NCBI GenBank assembly: GCA_016934415.1
Contig: JAFGSW010000039.1
Coordinates: 4,224 to 68,223 of the forward strand
From: Spirochaetales bacterium
Lineage (GTDB): Bacteria; Spirochaetota; Spirochaetia; SZUA-6; RPPD01
Direction: 5' to 3'
DNA: 64,000 bases
The translations under genes and the position numbers were made by a program. The notes under the pieces are model-generated. The model was not told where the DNA came from. It saw only the letters and a list, made by a program, of their open reading frames with translations, and did not search any database. This document shows positions 19,625 through 39,018 of the stretch, piece after piece (the stretch's first letter is position 1; each line of letters begins with the position of its first letter).

Positions 19625-19685
19625 AAACCGGGATCTCCCTTCGCCTTTGGTGTTGACTCTATTCGGCGATCGTTCTAATTTAATA

Positions 19686-19706
19686 AAAATGAAAACCATT
19701 TTCAAT
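19686..19706. promoter_or_regulatory. Fur-type box AAAATGAAAACCATTTTCAAT in the divergent nifU-like / DUF1007-NicO region
   Basis: 20 of 21 positions match the reverse complement of the fur-promoter box. Confidence 0.6.
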
Positions 19707-19789: not shown

Positions 19790-20395
19790 ATGAGAACGCC
19801 GAGGCTCATCCTGGCGTGCGTCGGCTTTCTCTGCGCGTTCGCGGAGGACGCCCCGGCTCATCCGCACGTCTTTATCGAAAATTCGTTCACGTTCATGTTC
19901 GGCGGCGGACGCCTCAAGGGGATCGCGGTCACGTGGATCTTCGACGAAATGTTCAGCGCGTCGATCATCGTGGACAATGACCGTAATCGCAACGGAAAAT
20001 TCGAGGCGCGGGAAAGCAAGGCGATCGAGGAAGGCGCCTTTTCGAACCTGAAAAACTTCAATTATTTTCTTTTCATAGATGCCGGACGCGGCCGTCTGAA
20101 GATTCAGGCGGTCAGAGACTTTCATCCTGAAATACTGGGGAAGAGGCTCGTGTATCGTTTTTTCGTGCCGTTCGACGTCGACGCGGGCGCGGCGGGGAAA
20201 ACGCTTGCGGCGGGTTGCTTCGACAGCACGTATTTCTGCGACGTGACGTACGCCGCAATCGACCCGGTGACGGTCGAGGCGGACGAATTGACGAGCGTTT
20301 CCTGGGATCTCGTGAAAGACAAGAAGAACGCCTACTGGGGCGGGACGATCGTCCCGCGGGTGGTGCGACTGAAATTCAGGTTGAAGAATGAGTAG
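19790..20395 (+). CDS. DUF1007 periplasmic protein (partner of NicO transporters)
   Basis: Signal peptide with HPHVF motif; its end overlaps the NicO gene. Confidence 0.65.
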   Translation: MRTPRLILACVGFLCAFAEDAPAHPHVFIENSFTFMFGGGRLKGIAVTWIFDEMFSASIIVDNDRNRNGKFEARESKAIEEGAFSNLKNFNYFLFIDAGRGRLKIQAVRDFHPEILGKRLVYRFFVPFDVDAGAAGKTLAAGCFDSTYFCDVTYAAIDPVTVEADELTSVSWDLVKDKKNAYWGGTIVPRVVRLKFRLKNE

Positions 20396-21823: not shown

Positions 21824-22699
21824 GTGATGGAAAACCGTATCAATGAAGCGACGTCGATGACCGCGGCCATGACCTGCTCGATCAGGGCGGCGTCTTTTTA
21901 TGAAAAAGATTCGTGTCTGAAATCCGATGATTTCGTCGCGCCGCTTCTTCTCCCCCGGATCATGCAGCCGATGGTAAGGTCGGGCCTCATCCGCCGGACG
22001 TTCATGCGGTTTCTGGCGCCGAAAGGAATCTATGAATACGTAATAGCCCGGACGAAATACATCGACGGAGCGCTTCAGGCCTCCTTGAACGACGGGGTCC
22101 GTCAGGTTGTCTTCTTCGGCGCCGGTTACGACACCAGGGCGATTCGGTTCCACGAATCCGGGCGTGGAACGATCTTCTATGAACTGGACTCGCCGCTTAC
22201 CCAGGAGGCTAAAATCGGGCAATTCCGGAAACGAGGGATCGTCGCGCCGCCCACGTGCCGCTTCATTCCGATCGACTTCAACCGTGAATCTCCCCAAGAA
22301 AAATTACGGGCGGCCGGATTCCATCCGGAGGAAAAATCGCTTTTCATCCTGGAGGGGGTGCTCATGTACCTGGGCGTCGAAGCCGTCGAGGAAACGCTGC
22401 GCATAATGCGGGAGCTTATGAGCCCCGGAAGCCGCGCCGTATGCGATTTCATTTATCGGTCCGTATTGCGCCGGGAAAATTTGTACTACGGCGAGGAGGG
22501 CATTTACAAGCGAGTTAATAAATACGGTGAGGCCTGGAAATTCGGGATCGAAAAATGCGATATGACTTCTTTTTTCCCCGCAAGGGGATTCCGCGTCGTC
22601 GAGATCGCCGATGCCGCTTTGCTGGAAGACAGGTTCCTGAAAGGCGAAAAACGGCATAGAATGAACGGTACCCATTGCATAGCGATGCTGGAAGGATAA
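21824..22699 (+). CDS. SAM-dependent O-methyltransferase, LCM/Ppm1-like
   Basis: VVFFGAGYDTRA motif. Confidence 0.65.
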   Translation: MMENRINEATSMTAAMTCSIRAASFYEKDSCLKSDDFVAPLLLPRIMQPMVRSGLIRRTFMRFLAPKGIYEYVIARTKYIDGALQASLNDGVRQVVFFGAGYDTRAIRFHESGRGTIFYELDSPLTQEAKIGQFRKRGIVAPPTCRFIPIDFNRESPQEKLRAAGFHPEEKSLFILEGVLMYLGVEAVEETLRIMRELMSPGSRAVCDFIYRSVLRRENLYYGEEGIYKRVNKYGEAWKFGIEKCDMTSFFPARGFRVVEIADAALLEDRFLKGEKRHRMNGTHCIAMLEG

Positions 22700-22701
22700 C
22701 C

Positions 22702-23388
22702 ATGAAAAAAACAACCGGTGGTATAGTCAAGGCGATTCGCATTGTCTTTTCCATCGCCGTCGCCGTGGCGGTGATCTTCATCCCTGCCGGCACCCTGGCC
22801 TGGCCTGAAGCCTGGATTTTGCTCGGCGCTTATTTCGTATTCGTGCTCGCCCTCGTCCTAAGAATTAAAAAACGCGATCCGGAATTGTATCAAGAACGGA
22901 CCGCCAGGCAGAAGGAAGGAAAACGCTGGGATAAAATCCTCCTCTCCGTGTATACCGTTTTTCTGCTTCTGATGCTCGTCGCCTCGGGCTTGGACGCCGT
23001 ACGCTTCAGGTTGAGCCATATACCCTTGGAAGTCAAAATCGGGGCGTTTCTTTCCTTTCTTCCCGTCGGTCTTCTCTTTTTTCTCGTGTACCGTGAAAAC
23101 ACCTTCGCCTCCAAGGTGGTGCGCGTTCAAAAGGACAGGGGACAGCGGGTGATCGATTCGGGACCGTACAAAGTCGTGCGCCATCCTATGTATGCGGCCA
23201 TCATCCTCATGATTCCGGCCGTGCCTTTGGCTTTGGGCTCGTGGTGGGCGTTGATCTTCGCGGGGCTGGTCGACATCCTTTTCGTCGTTCGCACCGCGCT
23301 TGAAGACAAAACGCTGAAAGATGAGTTGCCGGGATACATCGACTATGCGAAAAAGACAAGGTTCCGGCTTATTCCGGGCATCTGGTGA
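22702..23388 (+). CDS. isoprenylcysteine carboxyl methyltransferase family protein (paralog 2)
   Basis: VIDSGPYKVVRHPMY motif; sits 2 nt after the LCM methyltransferase stop. Confidence 0.7.
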   Translation: MKKTTGGIVKAIRIVFSIAVAVAVIFIPAGTLAWPEAWILLGAYFVFVLALVLRIKKRDPELYQERTARQKEGKRWDKILLSVYTVFLLLMLVASGLDAVRFRLSHIPLEVKIGAFLSFLPVGLLFFLVYRENTFASKVVRVQKDRGQRVIDSGPYKVVRHPMYAAIILMIPAVPLALGSWWALIFAGLVDILFVVRTALEDKTLKDELPGYIDYAKKTRFRLIPGIW

Positions 23389-25974: not shown

Positions 25975-26298
25975 TCAGCGTGCGGTCGACTTTCCGGCTA
26001 ATTTTTCTTCCACCGATTGCATCTTTCCCCGCATCGACAACTTTTTATCCCGGCGTTCGTCTATCTTTATCGAAGTCACGACCCTTTTTATTTTTCCGCT
26101 CAATACCGTCTTGTGCATTTTCTCGGCCACCGCCAGCAGCTTTTTCACCGATGGGGCCTCTATCACCGTTCCCATGGGACATACCTCATAGGTGAGACCC
26201 TTTTCCCGCTGCAGCACGCGCACGGCGGCCGCCACATAACTGCTCACGGAAGCGCTTTTTGTCCCGAGGGGGACGACGCTGATTTCCATCACCGGCAT
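25975..26298 (-). CDS. MTH1187/YkoF family protein
   Basis: ISVVPLGT..YEVCPMGT motifs. Confidence 0.7.
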   Translation of the reverse strand: MPVMEISVVPLGTKSASVSSYVAAAVRVLQREKGLTYEVCPMGTVIEAPSVKKLLAVAEKMHKTVLSGKIKRVVTSIKIDERRDKKLSMRGKMQSVEEKLAGKSTAR

Positions 26299-26329: not shown

Positions 26330-26548
26330 TTATGACAAATGTCTGTCTATTGTCCCGTCCGGCAACATCTCGTCCGGATGATACTCTCCCCGTTCCTCCT
26401 TTTGATAACGGACGCAACGCCGCCAGTTGCCATGGCAGTAGGCGTCGATCCATTTTCGGTTCAATTTCCCCGCGTCATAGAAATGTTTCATGGGGCAGAC
26501 TGCATACCATTTGCATTCGGGGCCCATGACGATGTGATTCATATACAT
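26330..26548 (-). CDS. small cysteine-rich protein (4 Cys; zf-like small domain)
   Basis: GPECKWYAVCPMK..CHGNWRRC pattern; partial Fur-like half-site upstream. Confidence 0.45.
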   Translation of the reverse strand: MYMNHIVMGPECKWYAVCPMKHFYDAGKLNRKWIDAYCHGNWRRCVRYQKEERGEYHPDEMLPDGTIDRHLS

Positions 26549-26805: not shown

Positions 26806-27114
26806 ATGCCTGAATTTAGTTACCCCTTTGCCGGAATGAGGAAAGACCGGAAGCTCACCGACTCGGAATTGATCCGCGCCGTCCGCTTCATGATTGCGGC
26901 GGAATATGAAGCCGTCCAGCTGTACATGCAGCTTGCCGAATCCACGGACAACAAACTCGCCGCCGAAGTGCTCAAGGACATCGCCGACGAGGAGCGGGTC
27001 CATGCGGGGGAATTCCTGCGCCTTCTGAAGGAGCTCGCCCCGGATGAGGAGAAATTCTACGCCGAGGGGGCGAAAGAGGTGGAAGAAGAGATTATGAAGA
27101 TGAAAAAAGGTTGA
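26806..27114 (+). CDS. ferritin-like (rubrerythrin/EncFtn-like) small protein
   Basis: AEYEAVQLY..ADEERVHAGEF, i.e. the ExxH pair of a half-ferritin. Confidence 0.6.
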   Translation: MPEFSYPFAGMRKDRKLTDSELIRAVRFMIAAEYEAVQLYMQLAESTDNKLAAEVLKDIADEERVHAGEFLRLLKELAPDEEKFYAEGAKEVEEEIMKMKKG

Positions 27115-27326: not shown

Positions 27327-27941
27327 TTACGGTTTTTTTGCGTTTTTTTCTTCATTTCCCCCCGTACCGCGCCCTGCATGCGGATGGATTTCCTTCATCC
27401 CGGACTTTTTCAGAATGATATTGGCGATAGGGAGGGAGAATGCGTAGGCGAGTCTCCGGCCTTTTTTTTCTTCCGGCGTCAACAGCCCTTCCTGAAAGGA
27501 AACGACGGTATTGCAGCAGAGATTCCCGAACAGAACCGACTGGGTAAACGCCCTGATTTGCAGCGCCTTAAATGCACCATAACATCTTTCAAGTGTTTTG
27601 CAAGAAACCGCAGACGGGTTGCCTCTCGTTTCGGCCATATGCTGGGCGAATAAAACGCCTGCCGATTCGGACCGGTCGACGCGCCGTCCGACGTTTTCCA
27701 CAATGGCGGCAATCTCCTCTTGCGCTATCCCCTCCTCCAGGCCGCGGCGGGCGTGAAGATAGGAACAATAGGCGCATTGGTTCACCTGGGAAACGGCCAG
27801 CATGAGCATTGTCCTGAAGCGGGGGGAAATTGTCTCCCCCCGGGGGATTTTTCTCAACGTCGTCATTCGGCCGAAGGTTGTGAAAAAGAGAAAGAGGAAT
27901 TCCCCAAACGAAGCGAAGATGCGCAGCCGGCCCTGCTTCAT
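27327..27941 (-). CDS. carboxymuconolactone decarboxylase / AhpD-like protein
   Basis: NQCAYCSYLH motif; start is uncertain. Confidence 0.55.
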   Translation of the reverse strand: MKQGRLRIFASFGEFLFLFFTTFGRMTTLRKIPRGETISPRFRTMLMLAVSQVNQCAYCSYLHARRGLEEGIAQEEIAAIVENVGRRVDRSESAGVLFAQHMAETRGNPSAVSCKTLERCYGAFKALQIRAFTQSVLFGNLCCNTVVSFQEGLLTPEEKKGRRLAYAFSLPIANIILKKSGMKEIHPHAGRGTGGNEEKNAKKP

Positions 27942-28088
27942 GACCGCAGTGTACCACACATTTTCCGGACGGTACATCGGACGGCGCGCCGCGCCGGGCG
28001 CCAAAGTCTGGGCCGGAAACGGCAATAATTCCTCGTTTCAATTCAAACGACGGCGCGATCGGATCCGATCGAAACCGGCTTTTTTCTA

Positions 28089-28138
28089 TTGACAGAGTGT
28101 GTAAAGTGAGGTATATTGAAAATGGTTATCATTTTCAA
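28089..28138 (+). promoter_or_regulatory. fur promoter (ttgaca-N17-tatatt) overlapped by palindromic box TTGAAAATGGTTATCATTTTCAA
   Basis: 9-5-9 perfect inverted repeat overlapping the -10 element. Confidence 0.7.
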
Positions 28139-28150
28139 TAAGGAGTTCGT

Positions 28151-28612
28151 ATGCCGCATGGGCACGGACACAGGTGGGGACAGAAATTATCGGGCTGCGG
28201 GTTCAGGTTGACCGTCGGCCGCGAGGCCATTATAGACGTCCTTTCGCGCTCGGACAAGCACCTGAGCGCCGAGGATATCTTCCTTGAGCTGCACGCCGAC
28301 CACCCGGGCATTGGTTTGACGACCATCTACCGGACCCTCGAGCTCCTGGTGCAGACGGGAATCGTGGCCAAGTTCGAATTCGGCCACGGCCGGGCCAAAT
28401 ACGAGCTCACCGAGGAATACGGCAAGAAAAAGCACCACCATCACTTGTTTTGCAAAAGCTGCCAGACGATCATCGATTATTCGGATTTCATGGAAGATGA
28501 AATCACCTATATAAAGAAAACGGAAAAAGGGCTGGCGAAAAAATACGATTTTCAGATTGACGGTCACATCATAAATTTTTACGGGCTGTGCCGCGCCTGT
28601 CGGGCGAAATGA
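28151..28612 (+). CDS. fur: Fur family transcriptional regulator
   Basis: HHHHLFCKSC and GLCRAC motifs; its own promoter carries a 23-bp palindromic box. Confidence 0.85.
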   Translation: MPHGHGHRWGQKLSGCGFRLTVGREAIIDVLSRSDKHLSAEDIFLELHADHPGIGLTTIYRTLELLVQTGIVAKFEFGHGRAKYELTEEYGKKKHHHHLFCKSCQTIIDYSDFMEDEITYIKKTEKGLAKKYDFQIDGHIINFYGLCRACRAK

Positions 28613-28638
28613 AAGGGGATTTTTTTTAAGCAGAAAAT

Positions 28639-28654
28639 GAAAATGGTTATCAAT
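28639..28654 (+). promoter_or_regulatory. Fur-type box GAAAATGGTTATCAAT upstream of the DUF5320 cluster
   Basis: Matches the motif. Confidence 0.55.
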
Positions 28655-28708
28655 AGCAAAAAAAGAGCGCCCGTGAGCGGGTGAAGTTTTTTATAGAGGA
28701 GGCATGAT

Positions 28709-29110
28709 ATGCCGAGAGGAGACAGAACAGGTCCCGCCGGTTTGGGCCCGATGACGGGAAGAGCGGCGGGTTATTGCGCCGGTTATTCGGTACCGGGTTA
28801 TATGAATCCGGTACGGGGAAGAGGTTTCTTCGGAAGAGGAAGAGGCGTCGGCTTCGGCCAAGGCGGTGGTTTCGGCCGTGGCCGCGGATACAGGAACATG
28901 TACTGGGCCACCGGTTTACCGGGTTGGTCGCGTTTCGGCGGTTTTTGGCCGGCGGACGCGTGCGTGTATCCGTATGGGGCCGCGGAGCCTTCGCCCAAGC
29001 AGGAAGCCGAGGCCTTGAAAAATCAGGTCAAATACATGCAGGATTCAATGGACGCCCTGAACGAACGCATCAGGGAGCTTGAGAATTCCCAAGCGGAAAC
29101 CGAAGAATAA
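28709..29110 (+). CDS. DUF5320-like protein (Gly/Arg-rich middle, coiled-coil C-terminus)
   Basis: MPRGDRTGPAGLGPMTGRAAGYCAG N-terminus; AGAGGAGG SD upstream. Confidence 0.6.
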   Translation: MPRGDRTGPAGLGPMTGRAAGYCAGYSVPGYMNPVRGRGFFGRGRGVGFGQGGGFGRGRGYRNMYWATGLPGWSRFGGFWPADACVYPYGAAEPSPKQEAEALKNQVKYMQDSMDALNERIRELENSQAETEE

Positions 29111-29188
29111 CGCCTCTCATGAATCGGGTCTGAGCGCCGGGATGGGAAGCCGTCCGACGTTCTGGCGGGGGGGTAAAAAGGAGGAACC

Positions 29189-29591
29189 ATTGAGAGCGGC
29201 CATTTCAACCGACGGAGCGTACGTATCCGCGCATTTCGGGCGGTGCCCGAGTTTCACCCTGGTGGAAATCGAAGGCGGGCGGACGGTAAAGAAGGAAGTT
29301 ATTGCCAATCCCGGACACCATCCCGGCTACCTGCCGCAATTTTTGAGCGAGCGGGGTGTAACCTGCATTGTCGCGGGCGGCATGGGCGGCCGGGCGCAGA
29401 TGCTCTTCGACGAGCAGGGGATACGCACCGTGATGGGGGTTTCGGGCACAGTGGATGAGGCGATTACCGGGCTCTGCGCCGGAACGCTCGCCGGCGGCGA
29501 ATCCCTCTGTCGGCCGGGTGCGGGCAAGGGGTACGGGGTGGAGAAGACGGATTGCGACCACGCCGGAGACGACAGCCATCAGCATGAGTGA
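29189..29591 (+). CDS. NifB/NifX-family (Nitro_FeMo-Co) protein with Cys/His-rich tail
   Basis: TTG start after a GGAGG SD; HFGRCPSF motif. Confidence 0.6.
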
Positions 29592-29661
29592 CATCGAAAG
29601 GAAAACGGCGGGGGAGCCTGCGGGATTCGCCGGGAACGGCGCTTTCGGGAGGGGAGTCGCG

Positions 29662-30501
29662 ATGAAAAGGCGCGCGGTGGCGCTCATCGCGGGATACTGT
29701 TTTCTCCACTGTCCGCCTGCCGCGTTCGCTCAGCCGCGCGTCGCGGCGCAGCTGATGGACGACCTGACGGTCTATGAGCTGCAGAAAGACGTCCTCCTGG
29801 TAACGCACAGCTATCCCTGGCCCGGGAACTCCCTGCTGGTTCGGCTGAACAGGACGAATTGGGTATGGGCCGATACGCCCTGCACGCCCGAAGCGACCAG
29901 GCTGGTGGTCAAGTGGCTGTATATGAAATACGGCGAACGCATCAGGATCACTGAAATCAACACCGGCTTTCACATCGACAATCTGGGCGGCAATCGGGAA
30001 TTGCTGAAATGGAAGATACCGACCTACGGGTCGAGTCTGACCTGCGAGCTTTTGCGAACGAAAAGTAAAAAGACGATGGCGAAAATGATCGACCTGCTGC
30101 GCGGCCCTGAAAATGAAAAATATCGCGACGCGTATCGGTCATTCGTCTTTTCACCGCCGACGAACCGTTTCGACATTACAAAGATCCAAACTCTGCGCCT
30201 CGGTGGGAACACCGTTGAAATCTATTTTCCCGGCCCGACGCACACCTTTGACAATGTGGTCGTCTATTTCCCGGACAAGCGGGTGCTGTTCGGCACCTGC
30301 ATGGTGCTGGCGGCGGACGCGAAAAGCGCCGGCTATACGGGCGACGCCGACCTCGCGCGCTGGCCCGAGTCCCTGCGGAAGGTGGCGAAACGCTTTCCCC
30401 GCGCGGCGCTCGTCGTGCCCGGCCACGGGGAGCCCGGCGGGCCTGAATTGATCGAGCATTCGATCCGCGTCGTGGAACGGAGCCGGGAGTGTCAAGAATA
30501 A
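29662..30501 (+). CDS. secreted MBL-fold protein (degenerate metal motif)
   Basis: Signal peptide MKRRAVALIAGYC..AFAQ; FHIDNLGGN and VVPGHGEPG motifs. Confidence 0.55.
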   Translation: MKRRAVALIAGYCFLHCPPAAFAQPRVAAQLMDDLTVYELQKDVLLVTHSYPWPGNSLLVRLNRTNWVWADTPCTPEATRLVVKWLYMKYGERIRITEINTGFHIDNLGGNRELLKWKIPTYGSSLTCELLRTKSKKTMAKMIDLLRGPENEKYRDAYRSFVFSPPTNRFDITKIQTLRLGGNTVEIYFPGPTHTFDNVVVYFPDKRVLFGTCMVLAADAKSAGYTGDADLARWPESLRKVAKRFPRAALVVPGHGEPGGPELIEHSIRVVERSRECQE

Positions 30502-30562
30502 ACGCCGATCGGCGGAACGACGGGGGCGGGCCCCCGTTCAATTTATCGACAAGGAGCTCAGC

Positions 30563-30937
30563 ATGAAAATTTGCGTCACGTCCCAAGGCGATTCGATCGA
30601 CTCGCCGGTCGATCCACGGTTCGGCCGGTGCGCGTTCTTCGTGATCGTGGACACCGACACGATGAAAGAAGAGGCGTTTCGAAACGACGCGGCCGCCGAA
30701 GGCGGGGGCGCCGGGATTCAGGCCGGCCAGTTCGTCGCTGAAAAAGGCGCGCGCGTCGTGCTCACGGGCAACGTGGGGCCGAACGCCTTCAGAACGCTTT
30801 CGGCGGCCGGCATCGAAATTTGCCCGGCGGCGACCGGCACCGTCAAGCAGGCCGTGCTGAAATACAAGTTCGGCGAGCTCAAGCCGGCGACCGGCCCCAG
30901 CGTGGATTCGCACGCCGGGATGGGCGGAGGTGCGTGA
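30563..30937 (+). CDS. NifB/NifX-family (Nitro_FeMo-Co) protein
   Basis: DPRFGRCAFFVIVD motif. Confidence 0.7.
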   Translation: MKICVTSQGDSIDSPVDPRFGRCAFFVIVDTDTMKEEAFRNDAAAEGGGAGIQAGQFVAEKGARVVLTGNVGPNAFRTLSAAGIEICPAATGTVKQAVLKYKFGELKPATGPSVDSHAGMGGGA

Positions 30938-30938
30938 A

Positions 30939-31121
30939 ATGCCGGGAAGAAACGGAACGGGACCGGCCGGGACGGGACGGGGAGGCTCCGGAGGCGGTGC
31001 GGGCGCCGGCGGCTATTGCCTCTGTCCGAAATGCGGGGCGAAAACGCCGCATGGCCGCGGAACGCCGTGCTCGGGCATGACGTGTCCCGCCTGCGGGGCG
31101 CGCATGACGAGGGGCGGCTGA
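30939..31121 (+). CDS. Gly-rich zinc-ribbon mini-protein (DUF5320-like N-terminus)
   Basis: MPGRNGTGPAGTGRGG followed by CLCPKCG..CPACG. Confidence 0.4.
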   Translation: MPGRNGTGPAGTGRGGSGGGAGAGGYCLCPKCGAKTPHGRGTPCSGMTCPACGARMTRGG

Positions 31122-31124
31122 GCG

Positions 31125-31889
31125 ATGCGAAGGGAATTCCCAATGCGGATGCAGATCGTCGCGCAGGGTTCGACGAAACGGGATCGCGAGCGCCGGGAAT
31201 GGGGGCTCTCCGTCCTTATCGACGACGACGTCCTCTTCGACACCTACGCCAATCCGGAAGCGCTGGAATCGTATTTCCGGCTCCATCACATCGACGTCGG
31301 GAAGATACGGCACATCGTCATTTCGCACGACCACTGGGACCACACGGGCGGGTTGTGGCGGATCCTGGAGCGGAATCGCGATTGCGCGGTGTACGTCTGC
31401 CGCAAAACGGGCGGTGAATTAAAGGAACGGATCAGGTCCTGCGGCGCCCGGCTCGTGGAGGTTGGGGAATCCGTCGCGATCCGGGACGGCGTCGTTTCGA
31501 CGGGCGAGATCGACGGGACGTACGCGGGCGCGCCCATCGTCGAGCAATCGCTTCTCCTCAAAAACGGAGGGACGCTTGCGGTGGTCACCGGCTGTTCGCA
31601 TCCCGGCATTCTCGCCATTCTTTCGCGCGCGGGCCGACTCTTCCGGGAGCGGATCGATTTCGTCATGGGCGGTTTTCACCTGGCGGACGCGGACGCCGCC
31701 GAGCTGGACGGAATCGCCGTCATGCTGAAAGAGGTGTACCGCGCGCGGACGCTCGCCCCGTTCCATTGCACGGGCGACGCGGCGATTTCGTTTTTCCGGA
31801 AGCGGCTCCCCGAGGCGACGATCGGCGCGGGGGCGGGGGACGAGTTCCGCTTCAATAACGCTGCGGACTCCTGGGAGCCGGTAAAGTGA
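31125..31889 (+). CDS. MBL-fold metallo-hydrolase
   Basis: VISHDHWDHTGG motif. Confidence 0.7.
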   Translation: MRREFPMRMQIVAQGSTKRDRERREWGLSVLIDDDVLFDTYANPEALESYFRLHHIDVGKIRHIVISHDHWDHTGGLWRILERNRDCAVYVCRKTGGELKERIRSCGARLVEVGESVAIRDGVVSTGEIDGTYAGAPIVEQSLLLKNGGTLAVVTGCSHPGILAILSRAGRLFRERIDFVMGGFHLADADAAELDGIAVMLKEVYRARTLAPFHCTGDAAISFFRKRLPEATIGAGAGDEFRFNNAADSWEPVK

Positions 31890-31899
31890 TGGATCGCCC

Positions 31900-32577
31900 G
31901 TGAGCAATTTCACGGCCAAGAGCGGCCCCTTTGACGAACACGCGATACGGTACGACGAGTGGTTCGATCGACACCCATGCGTTTATGACGCCGAGTTGCG
32001 GGCGGTCAGGAAAGCGCTGCCCGCGAGGGGCCGGGGGGTGGAGATCGGCGTGGGGAGCGGCCGGTTCGCGCTTCCGCTCGGCATCTCCGCCGGGGTGGAA
32101 CCTTCGGAGAAAATGAGGGCGCTCGCCCGCGCGCGCGGGATCGACGCGCTGAGCGGCGTCGCGGAGCGGCTCCCCTTCGCGGACGCGATGTTCGATTTCG
32201 TCCTGTTCGTCACCACCATCTGCTTTCTCGACGACGTCGGCGCCGCTTTCCGGGAGGCGCATCGCGTGTTGAAGAAGGGGGGCGCGGTCGTCGTCGGTTT
32301 CGTGGAGAAGCACGGCAGACTCGGCCGGGAATACGAGGAAAAGAAGGCGCAAAGCATTTTTTACCGGGAGGCGGAATTCCGCTCCGCGGAGGAGCTCGTT
32401 TCACTTCTGAAAAAAGCCGGATTCAAGCGTTGTGTTTTTTACCAGACCCTCTTCGGGACGCCGGAACGCGTGACGGCGGACGAACCGGTCCGGCGCGGCC
32501 GCGGCGAGGGTTCTTTTCTGGTCGTCAAGGCGCGGAAAGGAGGGGGTACTTGTGGGAAAATACGAGGAACTCGCTGA
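31900..32577 (+). CDS. class I SAM-dependent methyltransferase
   Basis: VEIGVGSGRF glycine-rich motif I. Confidence 0.7.
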   Translation: MSNFTAKSGPFDEHAIRYDEWFDRHPCVYDAELRAVRKALPARGRGVEIGVGSGRFALPLGISAGVEPSEKMRALARARGIDALSGVAERLPFADAMFDFVLFVTTICFLDDVGAAFREAHRVLKKGGAVVVGFVEKHGRLGREYEEKKAQSIFYREAEFRSAEELVSLLKKAGFKRCVFYQTLFGTPERVTADEPVRRGRGEGSFLVVKARKGGGTCGKIRGTR

Positions 32578-32866
32578 AGCGCGGGCCCTGTTCGGGATTG
32601 AGGAAGAGGAGACGATGGCGGTCGTCAAGCGGAAAATCAACGCGCTTCTTAAAAAATGGCACCCGGACACGGGAAGCGGGAAGGAAGGCGATGGCGCACG
32701 CAACGCGAAAACCGCGGCGCTTGTGGGAGCGAAGAAAATCATCATGAAGTACTGCGAGGGGTATAGGATTTCCTTCGGCCGGGAGGACGTGGAAAGGTAT
32801 CTGTCGCCGGAAGAGCGCTGGAAGAGGAATTTCGGCGGCGATCACGTCTGGGGCGGAAACGGATGA
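32552..32866 (+). CDS. J-domain protein
   Basis: KKWHPD motif; GTG start. Confidence 0.55.
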   Translation: MGKYEELAEARALFGIEEEETMAVVKRKINALLKKWHPDTGSGKEGDGARNAKTAALVGAKKIIMKYCEGYRISFGREDVERYLSPEERWKRNFGGDHVWGGNG

Positions 32867-32897
32867 ACGGGACGAAGAGAGGGGGGAAGGAACAGGA

Positions 32898-34814
32898 ATG
32901 AGGATTCGAATCGCCGTTTCAAGCGGCAAAGGGGGGACGGGCAAGACTTTCATCGCCACCAACCTCGCCCGCGTGCTTGAAAAGGCGGGCGAAAAAGCGG
33001 CCTATCTCGATTGCGACGTGGAAGCGCCGAACGGCCACCTCTTTGTAAAGCCCGTGATCGGGCGCGAGGAGGAAGCGACCCTCCTCGCGCCCGCGGGAAT
33101 CGACGAGGAGCGCTGCACCGCCTGCGGGAAGTGCGCGGAGGTGTGCCGGTACCACGCCATCGCCCGGGTCGGGACGTCGATGTTGTTTTTCAGAAATCTG
33201 TGCCATGTCTGCGGCGCCTGTACGCTCGTCTGCCCGCATAAGGCGATCATCGAGCGGCCGAGAAAAATCGGAACGCTCAGGGAAGGCGCGCGCGGCGGCA
33301 TCGAGTTCCGCGACGGGCTGCTCGAAACAGGCGAGGGCGGCATGACGCCCCGGCTCATCCGCCGCGTGAAGGAGTGGGCGGGCGGGGGAGTCGTCATCCT
33401 CGATTCCCCGCCCGGCACCTCGTGCCCGGTGGTGGAGACGGTCAAGGACGCCGATCTGTGCGTGCTGGTGACCGACCCCACGCCGTTCGGCCTCAACGAC
33501 CTGAAGCTGGCCGTCGCCATGTGCCGGGAGCTCGACAAGGAGCCCGTCGTCGTCGTGAACCGGGCCGGCTACGCGGACGCGAAGTTGAAGGAATATTGCT
33601 CCGGCGAGGGCCTCGCGATCGTCGCGGAAATCCCCGATGATCGCGCCGTCGCCGAATGTTATTCCGTGGGGGATCTGGCGGTCGACCGGTTTCCGGAATA
33701 CGACGAACTGTTTCGCGCGCTCGCCCTGGAGCTTTGTGAACGCGCTTTGAAAACGGGAACCGCGCGCAAGACGAAACGGCCGGCGGCTCGTCCGTCTGGT
33801 GTCCGATCGACCGCCGCGCGGACGGCCGGCGCGGATCGAACCGAAGAGCGATCCCCCGCGGAATCAGGGACCGCCGCCGGCGCTCCCGCAGGCGCGGGAA
33901 GGAACGGCCGGGCCGTGGAGGTGACGGTGATTTCCGGAAAGGGCGGCACGGGAAAGACCTCGCTGGTCGCCTGTTTCGCCGCCCTGGGGAAGGAGATCGC
34001 CGTCGCCGATTGCGACGTGGACGCCGCCGACCTTCACCTCGTCCTCAAGCCGCGGATCGCGGAGCGCGGAGTCTTTTCCGGAGGGGTAAAGGCGTCGATC
34101 GATCTGGAAAAATGCCTGGGGTGCGGGGCGTGCGCCCGCGTCTGCCGTTTCGGGGCCGTCAGCCGCGTTCCTTCGGGCGGAAGCGTCGTTTTCGGGATCG
34201 ACGAACGCGGCTGCGAAGGCTGCGGCGCCTGTTCCCTCGTCTGCCCGGCGGACGCGGTGGCCTTTCATCCCGCGGCGAACGGCGAATGGTACGTCTCGGA
34301 AACGGAATACGGTCCGATGACCCATGCCCGCCTGTACGCCGCGGAGGAGAACTCCGGCAAGCTCGTCTCGCTCGTGCGCGAACGCCGGAACACGCTGGCC
34401 GCGGAACGCGGCTTGGAGTGGTCGCTTTCGGACGGGTCGCCCGGCACCGGCTGTCCGGTCATCGCCTCCCTCACCGGGACCGACTACGCGATCGTCGTAA
34501 CCGAGCCGACCGTCTCGGGCGTTCACGACGTGCGGCGGGTTCTCGACCTGATCCGCTTTTTCAAGCTGCGCTCGGGCGTGGCGGTAAACAAGCACGACCT
34601 CAACCCAGCGAAAACGGCCGAGATACGCGCGTTGGCGGCGGAGTACGGCGCCGATTTTCTGGGAACCGTTCCCTACGATACGGCGGTGACCGAGGCTCAG
34701 ATCCGGGGAAAATCAATCGTGGAACACGATCCTGCTTCGCCTTCCGCCCTGGCGATCGCGGAAGTGTGGCGCCGGGTGAAGGACGAATTGGAGGTAAAAA
34801 ACGATGATGACTGA
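32898..34814 (+). CDS. fused tandem MinD/ParA-type P-loop ATPase with 4Fe-4S ferredoxin domains
   Basis: Two copies of SGKGGTGKT plus CxxCxxCxxxC; low-complexity linker between the halves. Confidence 0.8.
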   Translation: MRIRIAVSSGKGGTGKTFIATNLARVLEKAGEKAAYLDCDVEAPNGHLFVKPVIGREEEATLLAPAGIDEERCTACGKCAEVCRYHAIARVGTSMLFFRNLCHVCGACTLVCPHKAIIERPRKIGTLREGARGGIEFRDGLLETGEGGMTPRLIRRVKEWAGGGVVILDSPPGTSCPVVETVKDADLCVLVTDPTPFGLNDLKLAVAMCRELDKEPVVVVNRAGYADAKLKEYCSGEGLAIVAEIPDDRAVAECYSVGDLAVDRFPEYDELFRALALELCERALKTGTARKTKRPAARPSGVRSTAARTAGADRTEERSPAESGTAAGAPAGAGRNGRAVEVTVISGKGGTGKTSLVACFAALGKEIAVADCDVDAADLHLVLKPRIAERGVFSGGVKASIDLEKCLGCGACARVCRFGAVSRVPSGGSVVFGIDERGCEGCGACSLVCPADAVAFHPAANGEWYVSETEYGPMTHARLYAAEENSGKLVSLVRERRNTLAAERGLEWSLSDGSPGTGCPVIASLTGTDYAIVVTEPTVSGVHDVRRVLDLIRFFKLRSGVAVNKHDLNPAKTAEIRALAAEYGADFLGTVPYDTAVTEAQIRGKSIVEHDPASPSALAIAEVWRRVKDELEVKNDDD

Positions 34815-35763
34815 ATACCGCCATATTTTCGGCCCGGTGCCTTCCCGCAGGCTCGGGTATTCATTGGGCGTCGATCTCGTCCCCTTCAAGACGTGCTCCT
34901 ACGACTGCGTCTATTGCCAATTGGGGCGGACCACGGAGAAGACCGCCGCCAGGCGGGAATACGTCCCGACGGCCGAGGCGATCAGGGAACTGGAACAAAA
35001 ACTGCGGGAGCCGGGGAAGGTTGATTTCGTGACTTTTTCCGGTTCGGGGGAGCCGACGCTTCACTCGGGCTTGGGGGAGTTAATCCGCGCGGCCAAGCGC
35101 CTGACCGACGTTCCGGTGGCCGTTCTCACCAACGGTTCGCTTTTATGCGATGCAGACGTACGGGAAGCGCTCGCCCCGGCGGACCTGATCATTCCGTCGC
35201 TCGACGCGGGAAGCGAAGAGCTGTTTCGTTATATCAATCGCCCTTGCGCCGGGCTTGACTTTCACCGCGTCATTGAAGGCACCGTCGAGTTTTGCAGAAG
35301 ACATCGGAAGAAGGTATGGCTGGAGGTCATGCTCCTGGCCGGCGTCAATGTCACGACCAAGGAAATTCGCGCGCTGAATTCCATAATAAAAAAAGCGAAT
35401 CCGGCCAAAGTGCAACTCAACACGGTGACCCGACCGCCAGCCGAACCGTTCGCGGAGAGAGTGCCGCCGGAGGGCATGCGCGAACTGGCGGACCGATTCG
35501 ACGGGAACGTCCAAATCATATCGGATTTCGACCGCCCGCCGCGCCTCGGGGAAGCGCTGGCCATGGAAAACGAAGTGCTTGCGTTGGTAAGGCGCCGTCC
35601 CTGCTCGGTCAATGACGTCGCGGGAGGCCTCAACCTGCGCCCGAACGAGGCGGACAAGCACCTGGAGACACTCGAAAAGAACGGCTTCATCGTTTCCCTG
35701 CGCAGGGACGGAGTCGTCTACTACGCGGCGCGGCAGGCCCCTGCGCCTCAGAAGCAAGGCTGA
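34804..35763 (+). CDS. radical SAM protein with C-terminal wHTH-like domain
   Basis: GPVPSRRLG..CSYDCVYC motifs. Confidence 0.8.
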   Translation: MMTEYRHIFGPVPSRRLGYSLGVDLVPFKTCSYDCVYCQLGRTTEKTAARREYVPTAEAIRELEQKLREPGKVDFVTFSGSGEPTLHSGLGELIRAAKRLTDVPVAVLTNGSLLCDADVREALAPADLIIPSLDAGSEELFRYINRPCAGLDFHRVIEGTVEFCRRHRKKVWLEVMLLAGVNVTTKEIRALNSIIKKANPAKVQLNTVTRPPAEPFAERVPPEGMRELADRFDGNVQIISDFDRPPRLGEALAMENEVLALVRRRPCSVNDVAGGLNLRPNEADKHLETLEKNGFIVSLRRDGVVYYAARQAPAPQKQG

Positions 35764-35782: not shown

Positions 35783-36202
35783 ATGCGGAAACTGGAGCGG
35801 GAATACCATCCCCGCTGCTTGTTTTACGGAAAAATGAACGGCGTCCGCGTTTCATTCGATGAGAACGGCGGGATGACGGCGATCGTCGGCTGCGATGTGA
35901 GATGCGGCGGGTATGAAGGAAGAATGCACGGCGGCGTGATCTCGGCCCTGTTTGATTGGGCGATGACGCATTGCCTGTTCGGCCGCGGCATCAAGGCGTA
36001 TACCGCCCGCTTGAACGTGAAATATTCACGGCCGGTGGCGACGGGAACGGAAGCGACGATCAGCGTGATGGTGGAGGGGAAACACAATGAGCGCGTGTGG
36101 CGCGTCCGGTCCTCCCTCGCTCAGAAGCGGAAGGTGTGCGCCTCGGCCACCGCGCTTTTTTGGGAGGAATCGAACGGCAACGGAACGGGCGGTTCGGCGT
36201 GA
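35783..36202 (+). CDS. PaaI-family hotdog thioesterase
   Basis: Size and the HGGVISALFD motif. Confidence 0.55.
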   Translation: MRKLEREYHPRCLFYGKMNGVRVSFDENGGMTAIVGCDVRCGGYEGRMHGGVISALFDWAMTHCLFGRGIKAYTARLNVKYSRPVATGTEATISVMVEGKHNERVWRVRSSLAQKRKVCASATALFWEESNGNGTGGSA

Positions 36203-37077
36203 AGACGTACCGTGAATGCGTTCCCTGTTTCGTCTTGCAGGCGCGCGAGGCGTGCCGTCTTTTGGGATTGAACGATGAGAAGACGAGGGAGATCGACGAG
36301 GCCGCACGGATGCTCTTGGGCGGCATCGACCGATCAACCCCGCCGCCCATGACGAGCCGGCGGCTCTGCGCGCTGGTGGCGGGAAAAAGCGGCAGGCGCG
36401 ATCCCTACCGGGAGCTGAAACGGGAAAGCAACGAAGCGGCGCTGGCCGCGTATCCCCGTGTGAAGGAGATGGTGGCCGGAGCGGCGCATCCCCTGCGCGC
36501 GGCCGTGATCGCCGCCGGCGCGGGCAACATCATCGACTTCGGCGCCCTCAGGCGGCTGAACCTCGCGGACGGAATCGACGCGGTATTCCGGCGGGTGGAG
36601 GCGGCGAGCGAGGCGCGCGACGGCATATCGTTCGAGTTCGACTCGTTCGAGAAAGCGATCGGGAGCGCCCGGCGCCTGCTCTACCTGCTCGATAACGCGG
36701 GCGAGGCCGTGTTCGACCGGGTATTAATAGAAGAGTTGAAAACGTCATATCCCGGGCTGGAGATGACCTTCGCCGTCAGGGGCGCGCCGGTCATCAACGA
36801 TTGCCTTGAAGAGGACGCGGTCGCCTGCGGTCTCGGCGCGCTGGGAACGATCGTCTCCAATGGCTCGGACGCGCCGGGGACGGTGCTGCCCCTGTGCTCG
36901 GCCGATTTCCGCGGGGTGTGGGAGAAAAGCGATCTGGTGATCGGCAAGGGCCAGGGGAATTACGAAAGTCTCTCCGGGGTGCCGAAAAACGTCTTTTTTT
37001 TATTGATCGTCAAGTGCCGGGTGGTGGCGCGCCATATCGGCGCGCGCGTCCGGGACATTGTATTGAAGAGAGAGTGA
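36200..37077 (+). CDS. DUF89 (ARMT1-like damage-control phosphatase) family protein
   Basis: GTG start; CVPC N-terminus and LDNAGE motif. Confidence 0.6.
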
Positions 37078-37323: not shown

Positions 37324-39018
37324 ATGGCGAAGAAAATCATCATCATCGGCGGGTCGGCCGCCGGACCCAAGGCTGCGGCCCGGGCGAGGCGGCTGGACCA
37401 GAGGGCCGATATCACTCTTATCCAGCGGGGACCGGACCTGTCCATGGCCTCGTGCGGGTACCCGTATTACGTGGGGGGCGTGTTTGACGACCGCCGCATG
37501 CTTCTCTCCACGCCCACGGGCGTGGTCCGCGATCCCAAATTTTTCATGAACGCCAAGGGGATCACGGCGCTGACCGGAACCGAGGCGGCGGCGATCGACC
37601 GGAAGCGGCGCGTCGTGTCGTGCACTAATCTTGCGGACGGGAGCGCGAACGAGCTGTCGTACGACAAACTCATCCTCGCCACCGGTGCGACGCCGAAAAT
37701 GCCGCCCGTGCCCGGGCGGGACCTGGAAGGCATCACGACCCTGCAGTCCATGAATGACGCCGATTACCTCAGGAAGATCCGCGACGAACGCGTCATCAAG
37801 AAAGCCGTTATCATCGGCGGCGGGCTCATCGGGATCGAGACCTGCGAGGCGCTCGAGTTGGCCGGAATCGAGATCACGGTCATTGAGGCGCTGCCCCAGC
37901 TTTTAACCTTCCTGGATCCGCAGCTCGCCAAGATCGTGGAGAACCACATACGCGGCAGGAGGGCCAACGTCATCACCGGCAATGCGCTGGCTGAATTCCT
38001 GGGCCGGGACGGAAAACTTACGGGCGTGAAGCTGGTCAACGGCACGGAGCTCCCCTGCGAGCTGGCGGTGGTGGCGGTGGGCGTCAAACCCGACGCCGCC
38101 CTGGCGGCGGCGGCCGGCCTCACTGTCGGCGAGACCGGCGGGATCGCCGTGGACGAGTTCCTCAAGACCTCAGATCCCGATATCTACGCCGCGGGCGACT
38201 GCATCGAGACCGTCAACCGCATCACCGGCAAGAAGGCGCACGCCCCCTACGGCGACCTGGCCAATCTCCAGGGGCGGGTCGCAGGCGAGAACGCGGCCTG
38301 CGGGGACAGCGTTCGTTTCCCGGGCACCATCCAGACCGGCATCTGCAAGGTCTTCGATTTCAGCGCCGGCATCACGGGGCTTTCCGAGACCGCGGCGCGC
38401 GCGGCCGGTTTCACCGACATTGAAACCGTCGTCATCGCGGGACCGGACAAACCCGGCTTCATGAACGGCAAGCTCCTCATCACCAAGATGACGGTCAACC
38501 GCGCGGACGGCCGGCTCCTCGGCCTGCAGTGCGTGGGGGCCGGGGACGTGGGAAGACAGATCGCCTCCGGCGCCCTGGCCGTCATGGGCAAGCTCGCCGT
38601 GACCGACCTGGTGAACGCCGATCTTCCGTACGCGCCGCCTTTCTCGCTCGCCATCGACAACTTCATCGCCGCCGCCCATGCCATGGAGAACAAGCTCAAG
38701 GGCCGCATGAAGGGCATCGGCGCCGCCGAGGTGAAATCGCTCGCGGAAAAAATGAACGGCGTCTTCCTGTTGGACGTGCGCGGGCCGGACGAGTACGAGG
38801 CCGTGCGCCTCGGCATCGGCGAGGTGCTCATCCCCCTGGGCGCGCTCAGGAAGCGCGTCGGCGAGCTGCCCGCGGACAAGGGCGCGACCATAATCTGCTT
38901 CTGCACAATCTCGCTGCGCGGGTGGGAGGCGGCGGCCTTTCTGGCAAGCCAGGGCTACACCGATGTGCGCGTCATGGAAGGCGGGATTGCGGCCTGGCCG
39001 TATCCGAGGGAAAAGTGA
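37324..39018 (+). CDS. CoA-disulfide reductase-like FAD oxidoreductase with C-terminal rhodanese domain
   Basis: IIGGSAAG, SCGYPYY active-site Cys, and rhodanese CFCTISLRG. Confidence 0.8.
   Translation: MAKKIIIIGGSAAGPKAAARARRLDQRADITLIQRGPDLSMASCGYPYYVGGVFDDRRMLLSTPTGVVRDPKFFMNAKGITALTGTEAAAIDRKRRVVSCTNLADGSANELSYDKLILATGATPKMPPVPGRDLEGITTLQSMNDADYLRKIRDERVIKKAVIIGGGLIGIETCEALELAGIEITVIEALPQLLTFLDPQLAKIVENHIRGRRANVITGNALAEFLGRDGKLTGVKLVNGTELPCELAVVAVGVKPDAALAAAAGLTVGETGGIAVDEFLKTSDPDIYAAGDCIETVNRITGKKAHAPYGDLANLQGRVAGENAACGDSVRFPGTIQTGICKVFDFSAGITGLSETAARAAGFTDIETVVIAGPDKPGFMNGKLLITKMTVNRADGRLLGLQCVGAGDVGRQIASGALAVMGKLAVTDLVNADLPYAPPFSLAIDNFIAAAHAMENKLKGRMKGIGAAEVKSLAEKMNGVFLLDVRGPDEYEAVRLGIGEVLIPLGALRKRVGELPADKGATIICFCTISLRGWEAAAFLASQGYTDVRVMEGGIAAWPYPREK

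Follow-up and report, generated by a model that had tools for sequence, protein, structure and literature searches.

A Candidate Fur-Controlled, Extended orp Gene System in a Spirochaetales Bacterium

Introduction

A stretch of 64,000 nucleotides from an uncultured, anaerobic Spirochaetales bacterium (GenBank assembly GCA_016934415.1, contig JAFGSW010000039.1, positions 4,224 to 68,223; hereafter, the window) raises the question of what may be accomplished by a long series of co-directional genes that follow the gene of a Fur-family regulator, and which encode a DUF5320 protein, NifX-like proteins, a MinD-type ATPase with ferredoxin domains (MinD-Fd), and a radical S-adenosylmethionine (SAM) enzyme. 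A preliminary description of this region, made without database searches, considered that these families recur together with no assigned function, and proposed a metal-responsive system that handles or matures an Fe-S or heterometal cofactor. The first of these statements was too strong, given that the nearest known system, the orange protein (ORP) complex, had been overlooked, and the second agrees with the published accounts of that complex (PMC6345978, PMC8359166).

The ORP complex of Desulfovibrio vulgaris includes Orp3 and Orp4, which are MinD-like proteins with two [4Fe-4S] motifs each, and Orp5, a small, Cys-rich [2Fe-2S] protein (PMC6345978, PMC8359166). In addition, Orp8, the orange protein itself, binds a Mo-Cu-S cluster non-covalently (PMC6345978), and Orp9, or MrpORP, joins an Mrp P-loop domain to a NifX-type “Di-Nase” domain. 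The genes are organized in two divergent operons, which depend on sigma54 and the redox-sensing activator OrpR (PMC6345978, PMC8359166). The role of these genes continues to be regarded as unclear, with a part in cell division having been suggested, and they are controlled by the redox potential through OrpR (PMC8359166). The orp genes are nevertheless among the most widespread of the anaerobe-specific gene clusters, with their function unsolved.

Here, the region is interpreted as a Fur-repressed, extended orp system, dedicated to the ATP-driven handling of metal-sulfur clusters and switched on when iron is scarce, which we regard as the probable, though by no means assured, explanation of the locus.

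Kinship with the ORP Complex

The gene families were called through Pfam and NCBIfam profile searches, which supported the earlier assignments of DUF5320, Nitro_FeMo-Co (the NifX-like proteins), and MinD-Fd/COG1149. The window has much in common with the ORP complex of D. vulgaris Hildenborough (DVU2103-DVU2109), including an orange-protein-like NifX protein (NifX2), two MinD-type ATPases with two [4Fe-4S] motifs each, which in the window are the halves of a single chain, and both an Mrp/NBP35 carrier and a Di-Nase Fe-S domain. Both systems are restricted to anaerobes, and some relatives of the window cluster (the loci L006, L040, and L089) are headed by an OrpR-like activator of the PAS-sigma54 type.

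On the other hand, the MrpORP of D. vulgaris is a fusion, whereas the Mrp and NifX proteins of the window are encoded by separate genes at other loci. The OrpR/sigma54 control has no counterpart either, given that no enhancer-binding protein (EBP) is encoded in or beside the cluster, where fur and Fur boxes are found instead. The window also adds genes of a radical SAM enzyme, a methyltransferase, a J-domain protein, a metallo-beta-lactamase (MBL)-fold protein of the COG1237 type, a hotdog-fold protein, and a DUF89 protein, while the 6-Cys, 60-aa protein and DUF5320 are unconfirmed candidates for Orp5 and Orp7. The system is not unprecedented, but a fused, regulator-swapped, and extended variant of ORP, of a kind that is common among anaerobes not yet in culture. 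A limited literature search recovered no description of the radical SAM, J-domain, methyltransferase, or MBL companions of the orp clusters, nor of an alternation between Fur and OrpR, nor of the likeness of DUF5320 to the IssA tail described below.

The Fur Regulator and Its Predicted Operators

The solved structures closest to the Fur-family protein are all of Fur (9IRE in the PDB, E = 2.9e-26), with Zur at 2.7e-16 and PerR at 1.1e-14. Its gene has a sigma70-type promoter, and a first box begins 1 nt past the -10 element of this promoter. The core of this box, GAAAATGGTTATCATTTTC, is identical to the E. coli Fur box GATAATGATAATCATTATC at 15 of the 19 positions. The Desulfovibrio, or delta-proteobacterial, FUR box is WTGAAAATNATTTTCAW, with two copies that overlap by 6 bp (PMC545781), and the core of box 1 has this same form of two WTGAAAATNATTTTCAW boxes with a 6-bp overlap (PMC545781).

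When the window was searched for the 21-mer TGAAAATGGTTATCATTTTCA with up to 3 mismatches, 4 matches were found, against 0.00 expected. A position weight matrix built from three sites returned high scores only at positions 28118 (the fur promoter), 28639 (the spacer between fur and the DUF5320 gene), 15322 (ahead of a third NifX-like gene, NifX3), 19685 (where the nifU-mrp and DUF1007-NicO genes diverge), and 24105 (ahead of an ABC transporter gene), all of which are promoter regions. At three of these promoters (fur, NifX3, and DUF1007), the operator abuts the -10 element. The earlier assignment of a box to both the NifU-like gene and the NifX gene at 15367 was correct.

The candidate Fur-type operator recognized in the preliminary description recurs at the orthologous positions in L004, L007, L017, L087, and L088, with the same arrangement of the -35 and -10 elements before fur in all five. 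Both of the boxes of the fur region are kept in four of these genomes, while the first box is identical and the second degenerate in L087. The site in L017 (Leptospirales), GATAATGAAAATCATTATC, matches 18 of the 19 positions of the canonical Fur box, and L004 has a box ahead of feoAB as well, with sites at feoA, fur, and the spacer. The Fur box is a real predicted operator, and not a product of chance, while the binding of Fur and the iron signal are predicted here from the sequence.

As in the Fur regulons of E. coli and those with delta-proteobacterial boxes, the window has a putatively autoregulated fur, a box at the -10 element, two boxes shifted by 6 bp, and feoAB in the regulon of relatives. 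In contrast with those regulons, however, that of the window is dominated by genes predicted to handle Fe-S or metal clusters, rather than by uptake genes. The link between ORP genes and iron is supported by the findings from D. alaskensis, where the ORP-operon genes Dde_3197-3199, one of which is NifX-like, shift by approximately -6 and +7 log2, tracking feoA and flavodoxin (PMC10533852).

In the DUF5320 leader, a terminator-like hairpin and its T-run are found between Fur box 2 and the start codon. Among the relatives, the hairpin is retained by L087 (~6040-6070), where both sides of the stem have changed, and is absent in L004 and L017. Its interpretation as a conserved regulatory RNA was rejected, given that the closest relative alone retains it, although it could act as a leader attenuator. 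An Rfam scan of the whole window recovered zero known riboswitch or RNA families, this hairpin included, and hence no link to a molybdenum cofactor riboswitch or any other.

Gene Neighborhoods in Other Genomes

The homologs of the radical SAM enzyme were scanned with one genome per species, which provided 80 loci, distributed through the Spirochaetota, Planctomycetota, Desulfobacterota/Syntrophales, Acidobacteriota, Ignavibacteria, Methanocellales, and other groups. The companions were counted by tblastn with the window proteins at the 35 loci that have at least 6 kb on either side. The genes do recur together across phyla, as had been claimed, with NifX and MinD-Fd at 21 of the 35 loci (the ORP-type loci), DUF5320 at 17, the COG1237-type MBL at 13, and DUF89 at 10; the methyltransferase and Fur were found at 4 loci each, and the J-like protein at 2. 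Mrp is present at 16 of the 21 ORP-type loci and at none of the other 14. The ORP-type loci also include a PAS-sigma54 activator (10 loci), IscU (7), and peroxiredoxin (5). Nothing was found that spoke against either the family assignments or the co-conservation.

In L040 (Syntrophaceae), a single cluster encodes, in order, an EBP, NifX, DUF5320, a second NifX, a TrmO_N-like protein, MinD-Fd, a Zn_ribbon_8 protein, and the radical SAM enzyme, and continues with two methyltransferases, a DnaJ-domain protein, MinD-Fd, NifU_N, Mrp, NifX, MBL, hotdog, and peroxiredoxin. As the genes found at three Fur-box loci in the window are contiguous in this OrpR-type cluster, the box appears to define one functional set. 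The same radical SAM enzyme is found inside a sigma54/PAS-EBP (OrpR-like) cluster in L006 as well as in L040. In L004 (Spirochaetales), where the radical SAM enzyme is 52% identical, the order is that of the window, that is, FeoAB-DUF1007-NicO-Fur-DUF5320-NifX-NifX-75 aa, followed by MBL-methyltransferase-104 aa-fused MinD-Fd-radical SAM-NifU-DUF89. The start of the radical SAM gene also overlaps the stop of the ATPase gene in L004 and L087.

Other loci lack this radical SAM enzyme. L088 has Fur-DUF5320-NifX-NifX-66 aa-CGGC-Mrp-fused MinD-Fd, and L089, of the EBP type, has the ORP core, both without it. It is missing from L090 (KSB1) too, yet the MBL, methyltransferase, DnaJ, TrmO_N, and Zn_ribbon_8 genes are present. 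Conversely, L002 and L003 have methyltransferase-radical SAM-DUF89 with a pyridoxal phosphate (PLP) enzyme, and are without ORP genes. From these data, DUF5320, NifX, and MinD-Fd (plus Mrp) form the core, while the radical SAM enzyme, methyltransferase, J-domain protein, MBL, and DUF89 are frequent, but optional.

Two further companions were observed in the 21 ORP-type loci, a TrmO_N-like gene in 10, and a Zn_ribbon_8 (FmdB-type) mini-gene located just upstream of the radical SAM gene, also in 10. These companions (L040 7646-8284 and 9738-9995; L090; L004 12360-13463) belong to other phyla, and have no counterpart in the window.

Organization of the Unit

In the window, where the GC content is approximately 0.55-0.65, the Fur-family gene on the forward strand is followed by 12-13 co-directional and tightly packed genes (Table 1). 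The spacers from DUF5320 to DUF89 reach approximately 70 nt at most, several of the genes overlap, and the start of the radical SAM gene overlaps the stop of the ATPase gene by 11 nt. This layout, from DUF5320 to DUF89, is operon-like, and co-transcription is presumed from it. The earlier gene order held up to position 35763, where the cluster had been cut before the hotdog and DUF89 genes, which extend the conserved unit to 37077, with a possible further member in the gene of a CoA-disulfide-reductase (CoADR)-rhodanese protein.

Table 1. Position of the predicted genes and regulatory elements, in window coordinates.
Feature	Position	Strand	Evidence or remark
Fur box, behind TTGACA-17-TACTTT	15322-15340	+	ahead of the third NifX-like gene
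Third NifX-like gene (NifX3)	15367-15747	+	GHFGHC motif
Peroxiredoxin gene	15833-16513		downstream of NifX3
Mrp/NBP35 gene	18420-19244	-	downstream of the NifU gene
IscU-type NifU gene	19256-19624	-	carries a Fur box
Fur box	19685-19703		region common to nifU-mrp (-) and DUF1007-NicO
DUF1007-NicO	19790-21305	+	
fur promoter, sigma70 type, TTGACA-17-TATATT	28089-28117	+	11/12 consensus matches
Fur box 1, palindrome ATTGAAAATGGTTATCATTTTCAAT	28115-28139	.	directly 3' of the -10
Fur-family regulator (153 aa)	28151-28612	+	PF01475 1.1e-29
Fur box 2, GAAAATGGTTATCAATAGC	28639-28657	+	fur-DUF5320 spacer
Terminator-like hairpin and T-run	28668-28693	+	DUF5320 leader
DUF5320 protein (133 aa)	28709-29110	+	Pfam PF17253 1.4e-25
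NifX-like 1 (NifX1), Di-Nase type	~29142/29190-29591	+	PF02579 7.5e-22; AHFGRC motif, Cys/His tail
Secreted-looking, subclass-B1-like MBL-fold protein	29662-30501	+	NCBIfam bla_subclass_B1 168.9 bits
NifX-like 2 (NifX2), orange-protein (Orp8)-like	30563-30937	+	PF02579 2.3e-23
Gly-rich 6-Cys 60-aa protein	30939-31121	+	only weak zinc-ribbon matches
Cytoplasmic MBL-fold protein, COG1237/TM1679 type	31125-31889	+	Pfam Lactamase_B_2
Class I SAM methyltransferase	31900-32577	+	Methyltransf_11 1.3e-18
Divergent J-domain protein (104 aa)	32552-32866	+	DnaJ E=0.022; WHPD
Fused Orp3/Orp4-like ATPase (638 aa)	32898-34814	+	Pfam, 2x MinD and 4x Fer4
Radical SAM enzyme, C-terminal winged helix-turn-helix (wHTH)	34804-35763	+	PF04055 1.2e-17, HTH_20
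Hotdog-fold thioesterase	35783-36202	+	4HBT/4HBT_3
DUF89/ARMT1-like damage-control phosphatase family protein	36199-37077	+	PF01937 4.7e-59
CoADR-like flavoprotein with C-terminal rhodanese domain	37324-39018	+	246-nt gap before the gene, no Fur box

The Fused ATPase

Each half of the ATPase has a CbiA/ParA domain and two CxxCxxCxxxC motifs, which are invariant in 35 homologs, and each also keeps, in the same homologs, the Cys of a “DCD” motif and a Cys located seven residues past the Walker B Asp (C176 and C519). In the alignment to MinD, C519 falls in the Walker B/switch II segment, and this switch-II Cys (C176/C519) stands at what we take to be the position of the cluster ligand Cys132 in NifH.

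The confident AlphaFold2 model of the protein (pLDDT 86, pTM 0.85) has a disordered linker at residues 295-334, and the fold matches of each half include MinD, FlhG/FleN, NifH, the ATPase-type HypB, and ApbC. The fused form, of approximately 610-640 aa, is found in at least 120 database clusters, while elsewhere the two halves match two separate genes that flank the radical SAM gene. The 638-aa protein is a fusion of the Orp3-Orp4 type, with the predicted arrangement of an intramolecular pseudo-dimer.

The NifX-like Proteins, DUF5320, and the 6-Cys Protein

The cluster has two NifX-like genes, rather than the three counted previously, and the whole window has three, so that the gene at 15367 is the third, and not a fourth. 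The start of NifX1 is uncertain, at either the ATG at 29142 or the TTG at 29190, which lies behind a GGAGG. The protein matches the C-terminal domain of the NCBIfam MrpORP profile with 89.7 bits, and its relatives in the PDB are TM1816 and PH0822. The closest solved relative of NifX2 is the D. gigas orange protein (PDB 2WFB, 2.3e-24, residues 2-113, that is, the full length). NifX1 and NifX3 both resemble the Di-Nase part of MrpORP (positions ~260-365 of the NCBIfam profile), and have the HFG(R/H)C motif, while the Mrp protein matches positions 1-249 of this profile with 360.6 bits, below the cutoff of 450. The tails of the NifX proteins of the window are short and either acidic or Cys/His.

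An N-terminal extension of 110 aa on Mrp, which appeared in the list of open reading frames (ORFs), was rejected as an overlapping-frame artefact of the high GC content, given that the NifU-like protein is in fact encoded by an ORF of its own, in another frame.

The DUF5320 protein matches its Pfam profile with 90.8 bits, against a gathering threshold of 27, over positions 1-99 of 99. It is composed of a conserved N-terminal motif, a disordered middle rich in Gly, Arg, and aromatic residues, and a C-terminal helix (coiled coil). Residues 21-88 include 20 Gly, 8 Arg or Lys, a single Asp or Glu, 15 Phe, Trp, or Tyr, and 5 Pro, with an isoelectric point (pI) of 10.3. The means of 22 homologs are 31% Gly, 12% Arg and Lys, 1% Asp and Glu, and 18% aromatic, with a single Cys and a median pI of 10.9. 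The tail of IssA has 70 residues, of which 7 are cationic, 14 aromatic, and 15 Gly, with a sole Cys and a pI of 10.7, and has been proposed to wrap anionic thioferrate (PMC5524996). The middle of DUF5320 thus closely matches the IssA tail, as far as the comparison of its sequence with the published figures goes, in a likeness of composition rather than demonstrated homology.

The 6-Cys protein has the pattern CxCxxC...CxxxxCxxC and a DUF5320-like N-terminus (MPGRNGTGPAG), with homologs at the same position in L004, L007, and L088. In the spacer between fur and DUF5320 of L088 (~5220-5400), an extra small ORF was also observed, which has the N-terminal motif of DUF5320 (MPNFDGTGPQGAGPMTG...) at its start. 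This motif is a possible module common to the 6-Cys protein and the small ORF of L088.

The possibility that these small Gly-rich proteins are the substrates in a precursor-plus-maturase system for ribosomally synthesized and post-translationally modified peptides was rejected as unlikely, because DUF5320 has a conserved N-terminus and a coiled coil, and accompanies NifX and MinD-Fd where the radical SAM enzyme is absent. A literature search on DUF5320 returned nothing relevant, and one on COG1149 and Nitro_FeMo-Co nothing useful.

The Radical SAM Enzyme and the Optional Companions

The residues C31, C35, and C38 of the CX3CX2C motif of the radical SAM enzyme are invariant (PF04055, 65.1 bits), and one further Cys, in the RRPC motif of the wHTH, is also invariant. 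No NCBIfam family reaches its cutoff, with the best matches (MoaA, W-maturase, viperin, and TYW1) scoring 43-48 bits against cutoffs of 180-380. This search returned no match to NifB, and the best PDB E-value is only 1.4e-5. The family is very large, with more than 8000 database clusters matched, and its JGI label, “wyosine synthetase”, is a name at the COG level only. Some homologs (P0043, P0081, P0107, and P0120) are fusions of ~510 aa with Methyltransf_11, and given the existence of these fusions, the radical SAM enzyme and the methyltransferase would appear to be functionally linked.

In L087 (11862-12810), the closest of the relatives on long contigs, the radical SAM gene was called as two pieces, of 117 and 213 aa, as might result from a frameshift, a pseudogene, or an error of assembly. 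In the sigma54-type ORP cluster of L089, which is without the radical SAM enzyme, an ORF of 123 aa (3770-3970) matches 67 residues of the window enzyme with 51% identity, and may be a stand-alone fragment or relic.

The first MBL-fold protein falls below the NCBIfam subclass B1 cutoff of 200 bits and, by eye, its HxHxD motif reads FHIDN, with the first His replaced; its signal-peptide-like N-terminus was also judged by eye. It is present in L087 and absent from L004, L007, and other related loci, and looks like a lineage-specific insert. The second MBL-fold protein has relatives in the PDB in 7DCK (1.3e-26) and TM1679 (1.1e-22).

The J-domain assignment made earlier stands in part. The window copy is sub-threshold, with 15.3 bits against the PF00226 gathering threshold of 27.8, although WHPD is invariant in 12 members of the family, and the homologs in L040 (7.2e-12, 45.7 bits) and L090 pass the Pfam threshold. 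In the structural model (pLDDT 70.5), helices at 22-36 and 47-70 flank the HPD, and the fold matches are almost only to J-domains, albeit with weak E-values. Considering these data, the 104-aa protein is accepted as a divergent J-domain. The hotdog gene has a counterpart in the L040 cluster, and DUF89 adjoins the radical SAM gene in L002-L005.

Proposed Function and Alternative Explanations

Under the interpretation preferred here, Fur, probably loaded with Fe2+, would repress transcription from boxes of 19-21 bp at the -10/start region of five promoters, those of fur, the DUF5320 spacer, NifX3-peroxiredoxin, nifU-mrp/DUF1007-NicO, and the ABC transporter. Iron scarcity would then turn on the whole set together, with importers (DUF1007-NicO, and feoAB in the relatives), IscU, and Mrp. 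The engine of the system would be the fused Orp3/Orp4-like pseudo-dimer, with four predicted [4Fe-4S] sites and two more invariant Cys per half, which, through ATP-driven switching, may pass electrons or a cluster on to the NifX-like proteins, or receive them from these, by analogy with the SIMIBI ATPases and MrpORP. The polycationic, Gly- and aromatic-rich DUF5320 might hold anionic metal-sulfide species, in a manner similar to the role proposed for the IssA tail, while the supply of Fe-S clusters would fall to the IscU-like and Mrp proteins, with the J-domain protein bringing Hsp70 to the IscU-like scaffold, the part that HscB plays for IscU. The methyltransferase, the COG1237 MBL, the hotdog protein, and DUF89 would join the radical SAM enzyme in carrying out some modification. 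As the radical SAM gene appears to be translationally coupled to the ATPase gene, the arrangement suggests that the ATPase serves the radical SAM enzyme or acts on the same substrate. We infer the formation of a complex and every chemical step by analogy.

This scheme can be compared with the HscB-HscA-IscU and Suf systems of E. coli, given that a J-domain protein and an IscU-type scaffold also travel with the cluster (L004, L040), and that an Fe-S system would again be under Fur repression, which is here predicted. The J protein of the window is, however, a stand-alone protein of 104 aa without the C-terminal domain of HscB, and neither SufBCD nor a cysteine desulfurase is encoded in the unit.

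Several points weigh against this interpretation. An Fe-S-rich machine that is switched on at low iron is costly, with the suf operon of E. coli, which is repressed by Fur, as the only precedent known to us. The radical SAM, methyltransferase, J-domain, and MBL genes are absent from the characterized Desulfovibrio cluster. The radical SAM gene is also absent from the three fused MinD-Fd loci sampled (L088-L090), while 14 of the 35 radical SAM loci are without ORP genes nearby, and the radical SAM module may be functionally separable. The peroxiredoxin in the regulon would fit a PerR-like signal as well, and the idea of an interface-cluster site in the ATPase comes from the position of its Cys in the sequence. 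In addition, the orp genes of D. vulgaris are under redox control (OrpR), not iron control, and a role in cell division has been suggested for them (PMC8359166).

One alternative, which we consider unlikely, is that the extended ORP cluster is the general means by which anaerobes assemble a complex metal-sulfur cofactor other than that of nitrogenase, following the logic of nitrogenase cofactor synthesis. In such an assembly line, the radical SAM enzyme, of a hitherto uncharacterized family, and the methyltransferase would act in a NifB-like manner on a cluster held by the NifX carriers, MinD-Fd would be a NifH-like, ATP-driven maturase, low-potential reductase, or insertase, the DUF5320 polycation would hold an intermediate, and IscU and Mrp would supply [4Fe-4S]. 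The radical SAM gene does lie between or beside MinD-Fd genes in many phyla, overlapping the ATPase gene in the window, and fusions of radical SAM enzymes with methyltransferases are known, but the enzyme is optional in the ORP-type clusters, has no specific similarity to NifB (the best NCBIfam match, of ~45 bits, being far from cutoffs of 180-380), and has a single conserved Cys beyond CX3CX2C, so that no auxiliary-cluster domain is evident. Like the NifB, NifX-NafY, and NifH set, the window combines a radical SAM enzyme with NifX-domain carriers and an Fe-S ATPase of the SIMIBI class, with NifH among the fold matches of the ATPase and a Cys in its switch II, whereas the ATPase has inserted ferredoxin domains, and neither NifEN nor nitrogenase genes, nor any client enzyme nearby, are encoded. 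The NifX domain is common to NifB, NifX, and NafY (PMC8351635), and non-covalent binding of a Mo-Cu-S cluster is established for the orange protein (PMC6345978). A storage role, in which NifX and DUF5320 would hold a thioferrate-like polymer that the ATPase-ferredoxin reduces to [4Fe-4S] at low iron, seems quite unlikely. The middle of DUF5320 has the composition of the IssA tail, with a pI of ~10-11, and IssA is itself a NifX-domain protein, the iron of which is mobilized only with a reductant (PMC5524996). The IssA of Pyrococcus furiosus thus combines in one protein a NifX domain and a cationic, single-Cys, disordered segment rich in Gly and aromatic residues, which in the window are the separate genes of NifX and DUF5320. 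The predicted Fur regulon also includes IscU, Mrp, and metal importers, and the neighboring CoADR-rhodanese gene is of a sulfur-reducing type. However, IssA is produced under an abundance of iron and sulfide (PMC5524996), the opposite of the low-iron expression predicted from the operator geometry, the likeness is compositional rather than a demonstrated homology, and NifX2 is nearest to the orange protein, not IssA.

The region might also consist of two unrelated, adjacent modules, the ORP core of DUF5320, NifX, and MinD-Fd, and a small-molecule pathway formed by the methyltransferase, the radical SAM enzyme, the hotdog protein, and DUF89. This would account for L002 and L003, where methyltransferase-radical SAM-DUF89 and a PLP enzyme are found with no ORP genes, as well as for the 14 of the 35 radical SAM loci without these genes, and for the ORP core without this enzyme in L088-L090. 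It is nonetheless distinctly improbable, given that 60% of the well-flanked radical SAM loci, in many phyla, are inside ORP-type clusters, often between two MinD-Fd genes, that the start of the radical SAM gene overlaps the stop of the ATPase gene in the window, L004, and L087, and that the methyltransferase, J-domain, and MBL genes accompany the core even without the radical SAM gene (L090). Similarly little credence is given to a regulator that senses peroxide or another metal (PerR-, Zur-, or Nur-like), with a regulon for the repair or protection of Fe-S clusters during oxidative stress. The boxes of Fur and PerR are similar, a peroxiredoxin gene is found downstream of the box-controlled NifX3 and a rubrerythrin-like gene upstream of fur, and DUF1007-NicO are transporters of the nickel/cobalt/zinc type; but the solved Fur relatives are ahead of PerR and Zur by approximately 10 orders of magnitude, in L004, the same box lies ahead of feoAB, and the site of L017 is a match to the canonical Fur box at 18 of the 19 positions.

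Returning to the Fur-repressed, extended orp system, IscU, Mrp, a J-domain protein, and peroxiredoxin accompany the core, as does, in many cases, a radical SAM-methyltransferase pair, and these companions point to the biogenesis of metal-sulfur clusters, rather than to cell division. The same gene set is under either a redox sensor (OrpR) or Fur, depending on the lineage, which links it to the iron supply, and DUF5320 shares its chemical make-up with the thioferrate-binding tail of IssA. Should these leads hold, they would open the way to the function of DUF5320, COG1149, and the large radical SAM family. The finding sharpens an old open question with testable leads, with neither a mechanism given nor a categorical surprise.

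Other Genes in the Window

The CoADR-rhodanese gene, the membership of which in the unit is uncertain, is of the persulfide/polysulfide reductase type, with homologs at up to 10 kb from the radical SAM gene in 4 of the 35 loci, and a link to the supply of sulfide is possible. A ComM/Mg-chelatase-like ATPase gene (13694-15241) precedes the box-controlled NifX3 gene, and methyltransferase genes of the LCM and ICMT/PEMT types (21824-23388) are located in the interval from NicO to the box-controlled ABC transporter gene. Upstream of fur, the reverse strand has a gene of the thiamine-binding protein family (25975-26298) and a Cys-rich ORF of 72 aa (26330-26548), followed by a small rubrerythrin/EncFtn-like gene on the forward strand (26806-27114) and a CMD/AhpD-like gene on the reverse strand (27327-28025). 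The thiamine-binding protein gene and a 70-aa ORF are syntenic in L087.

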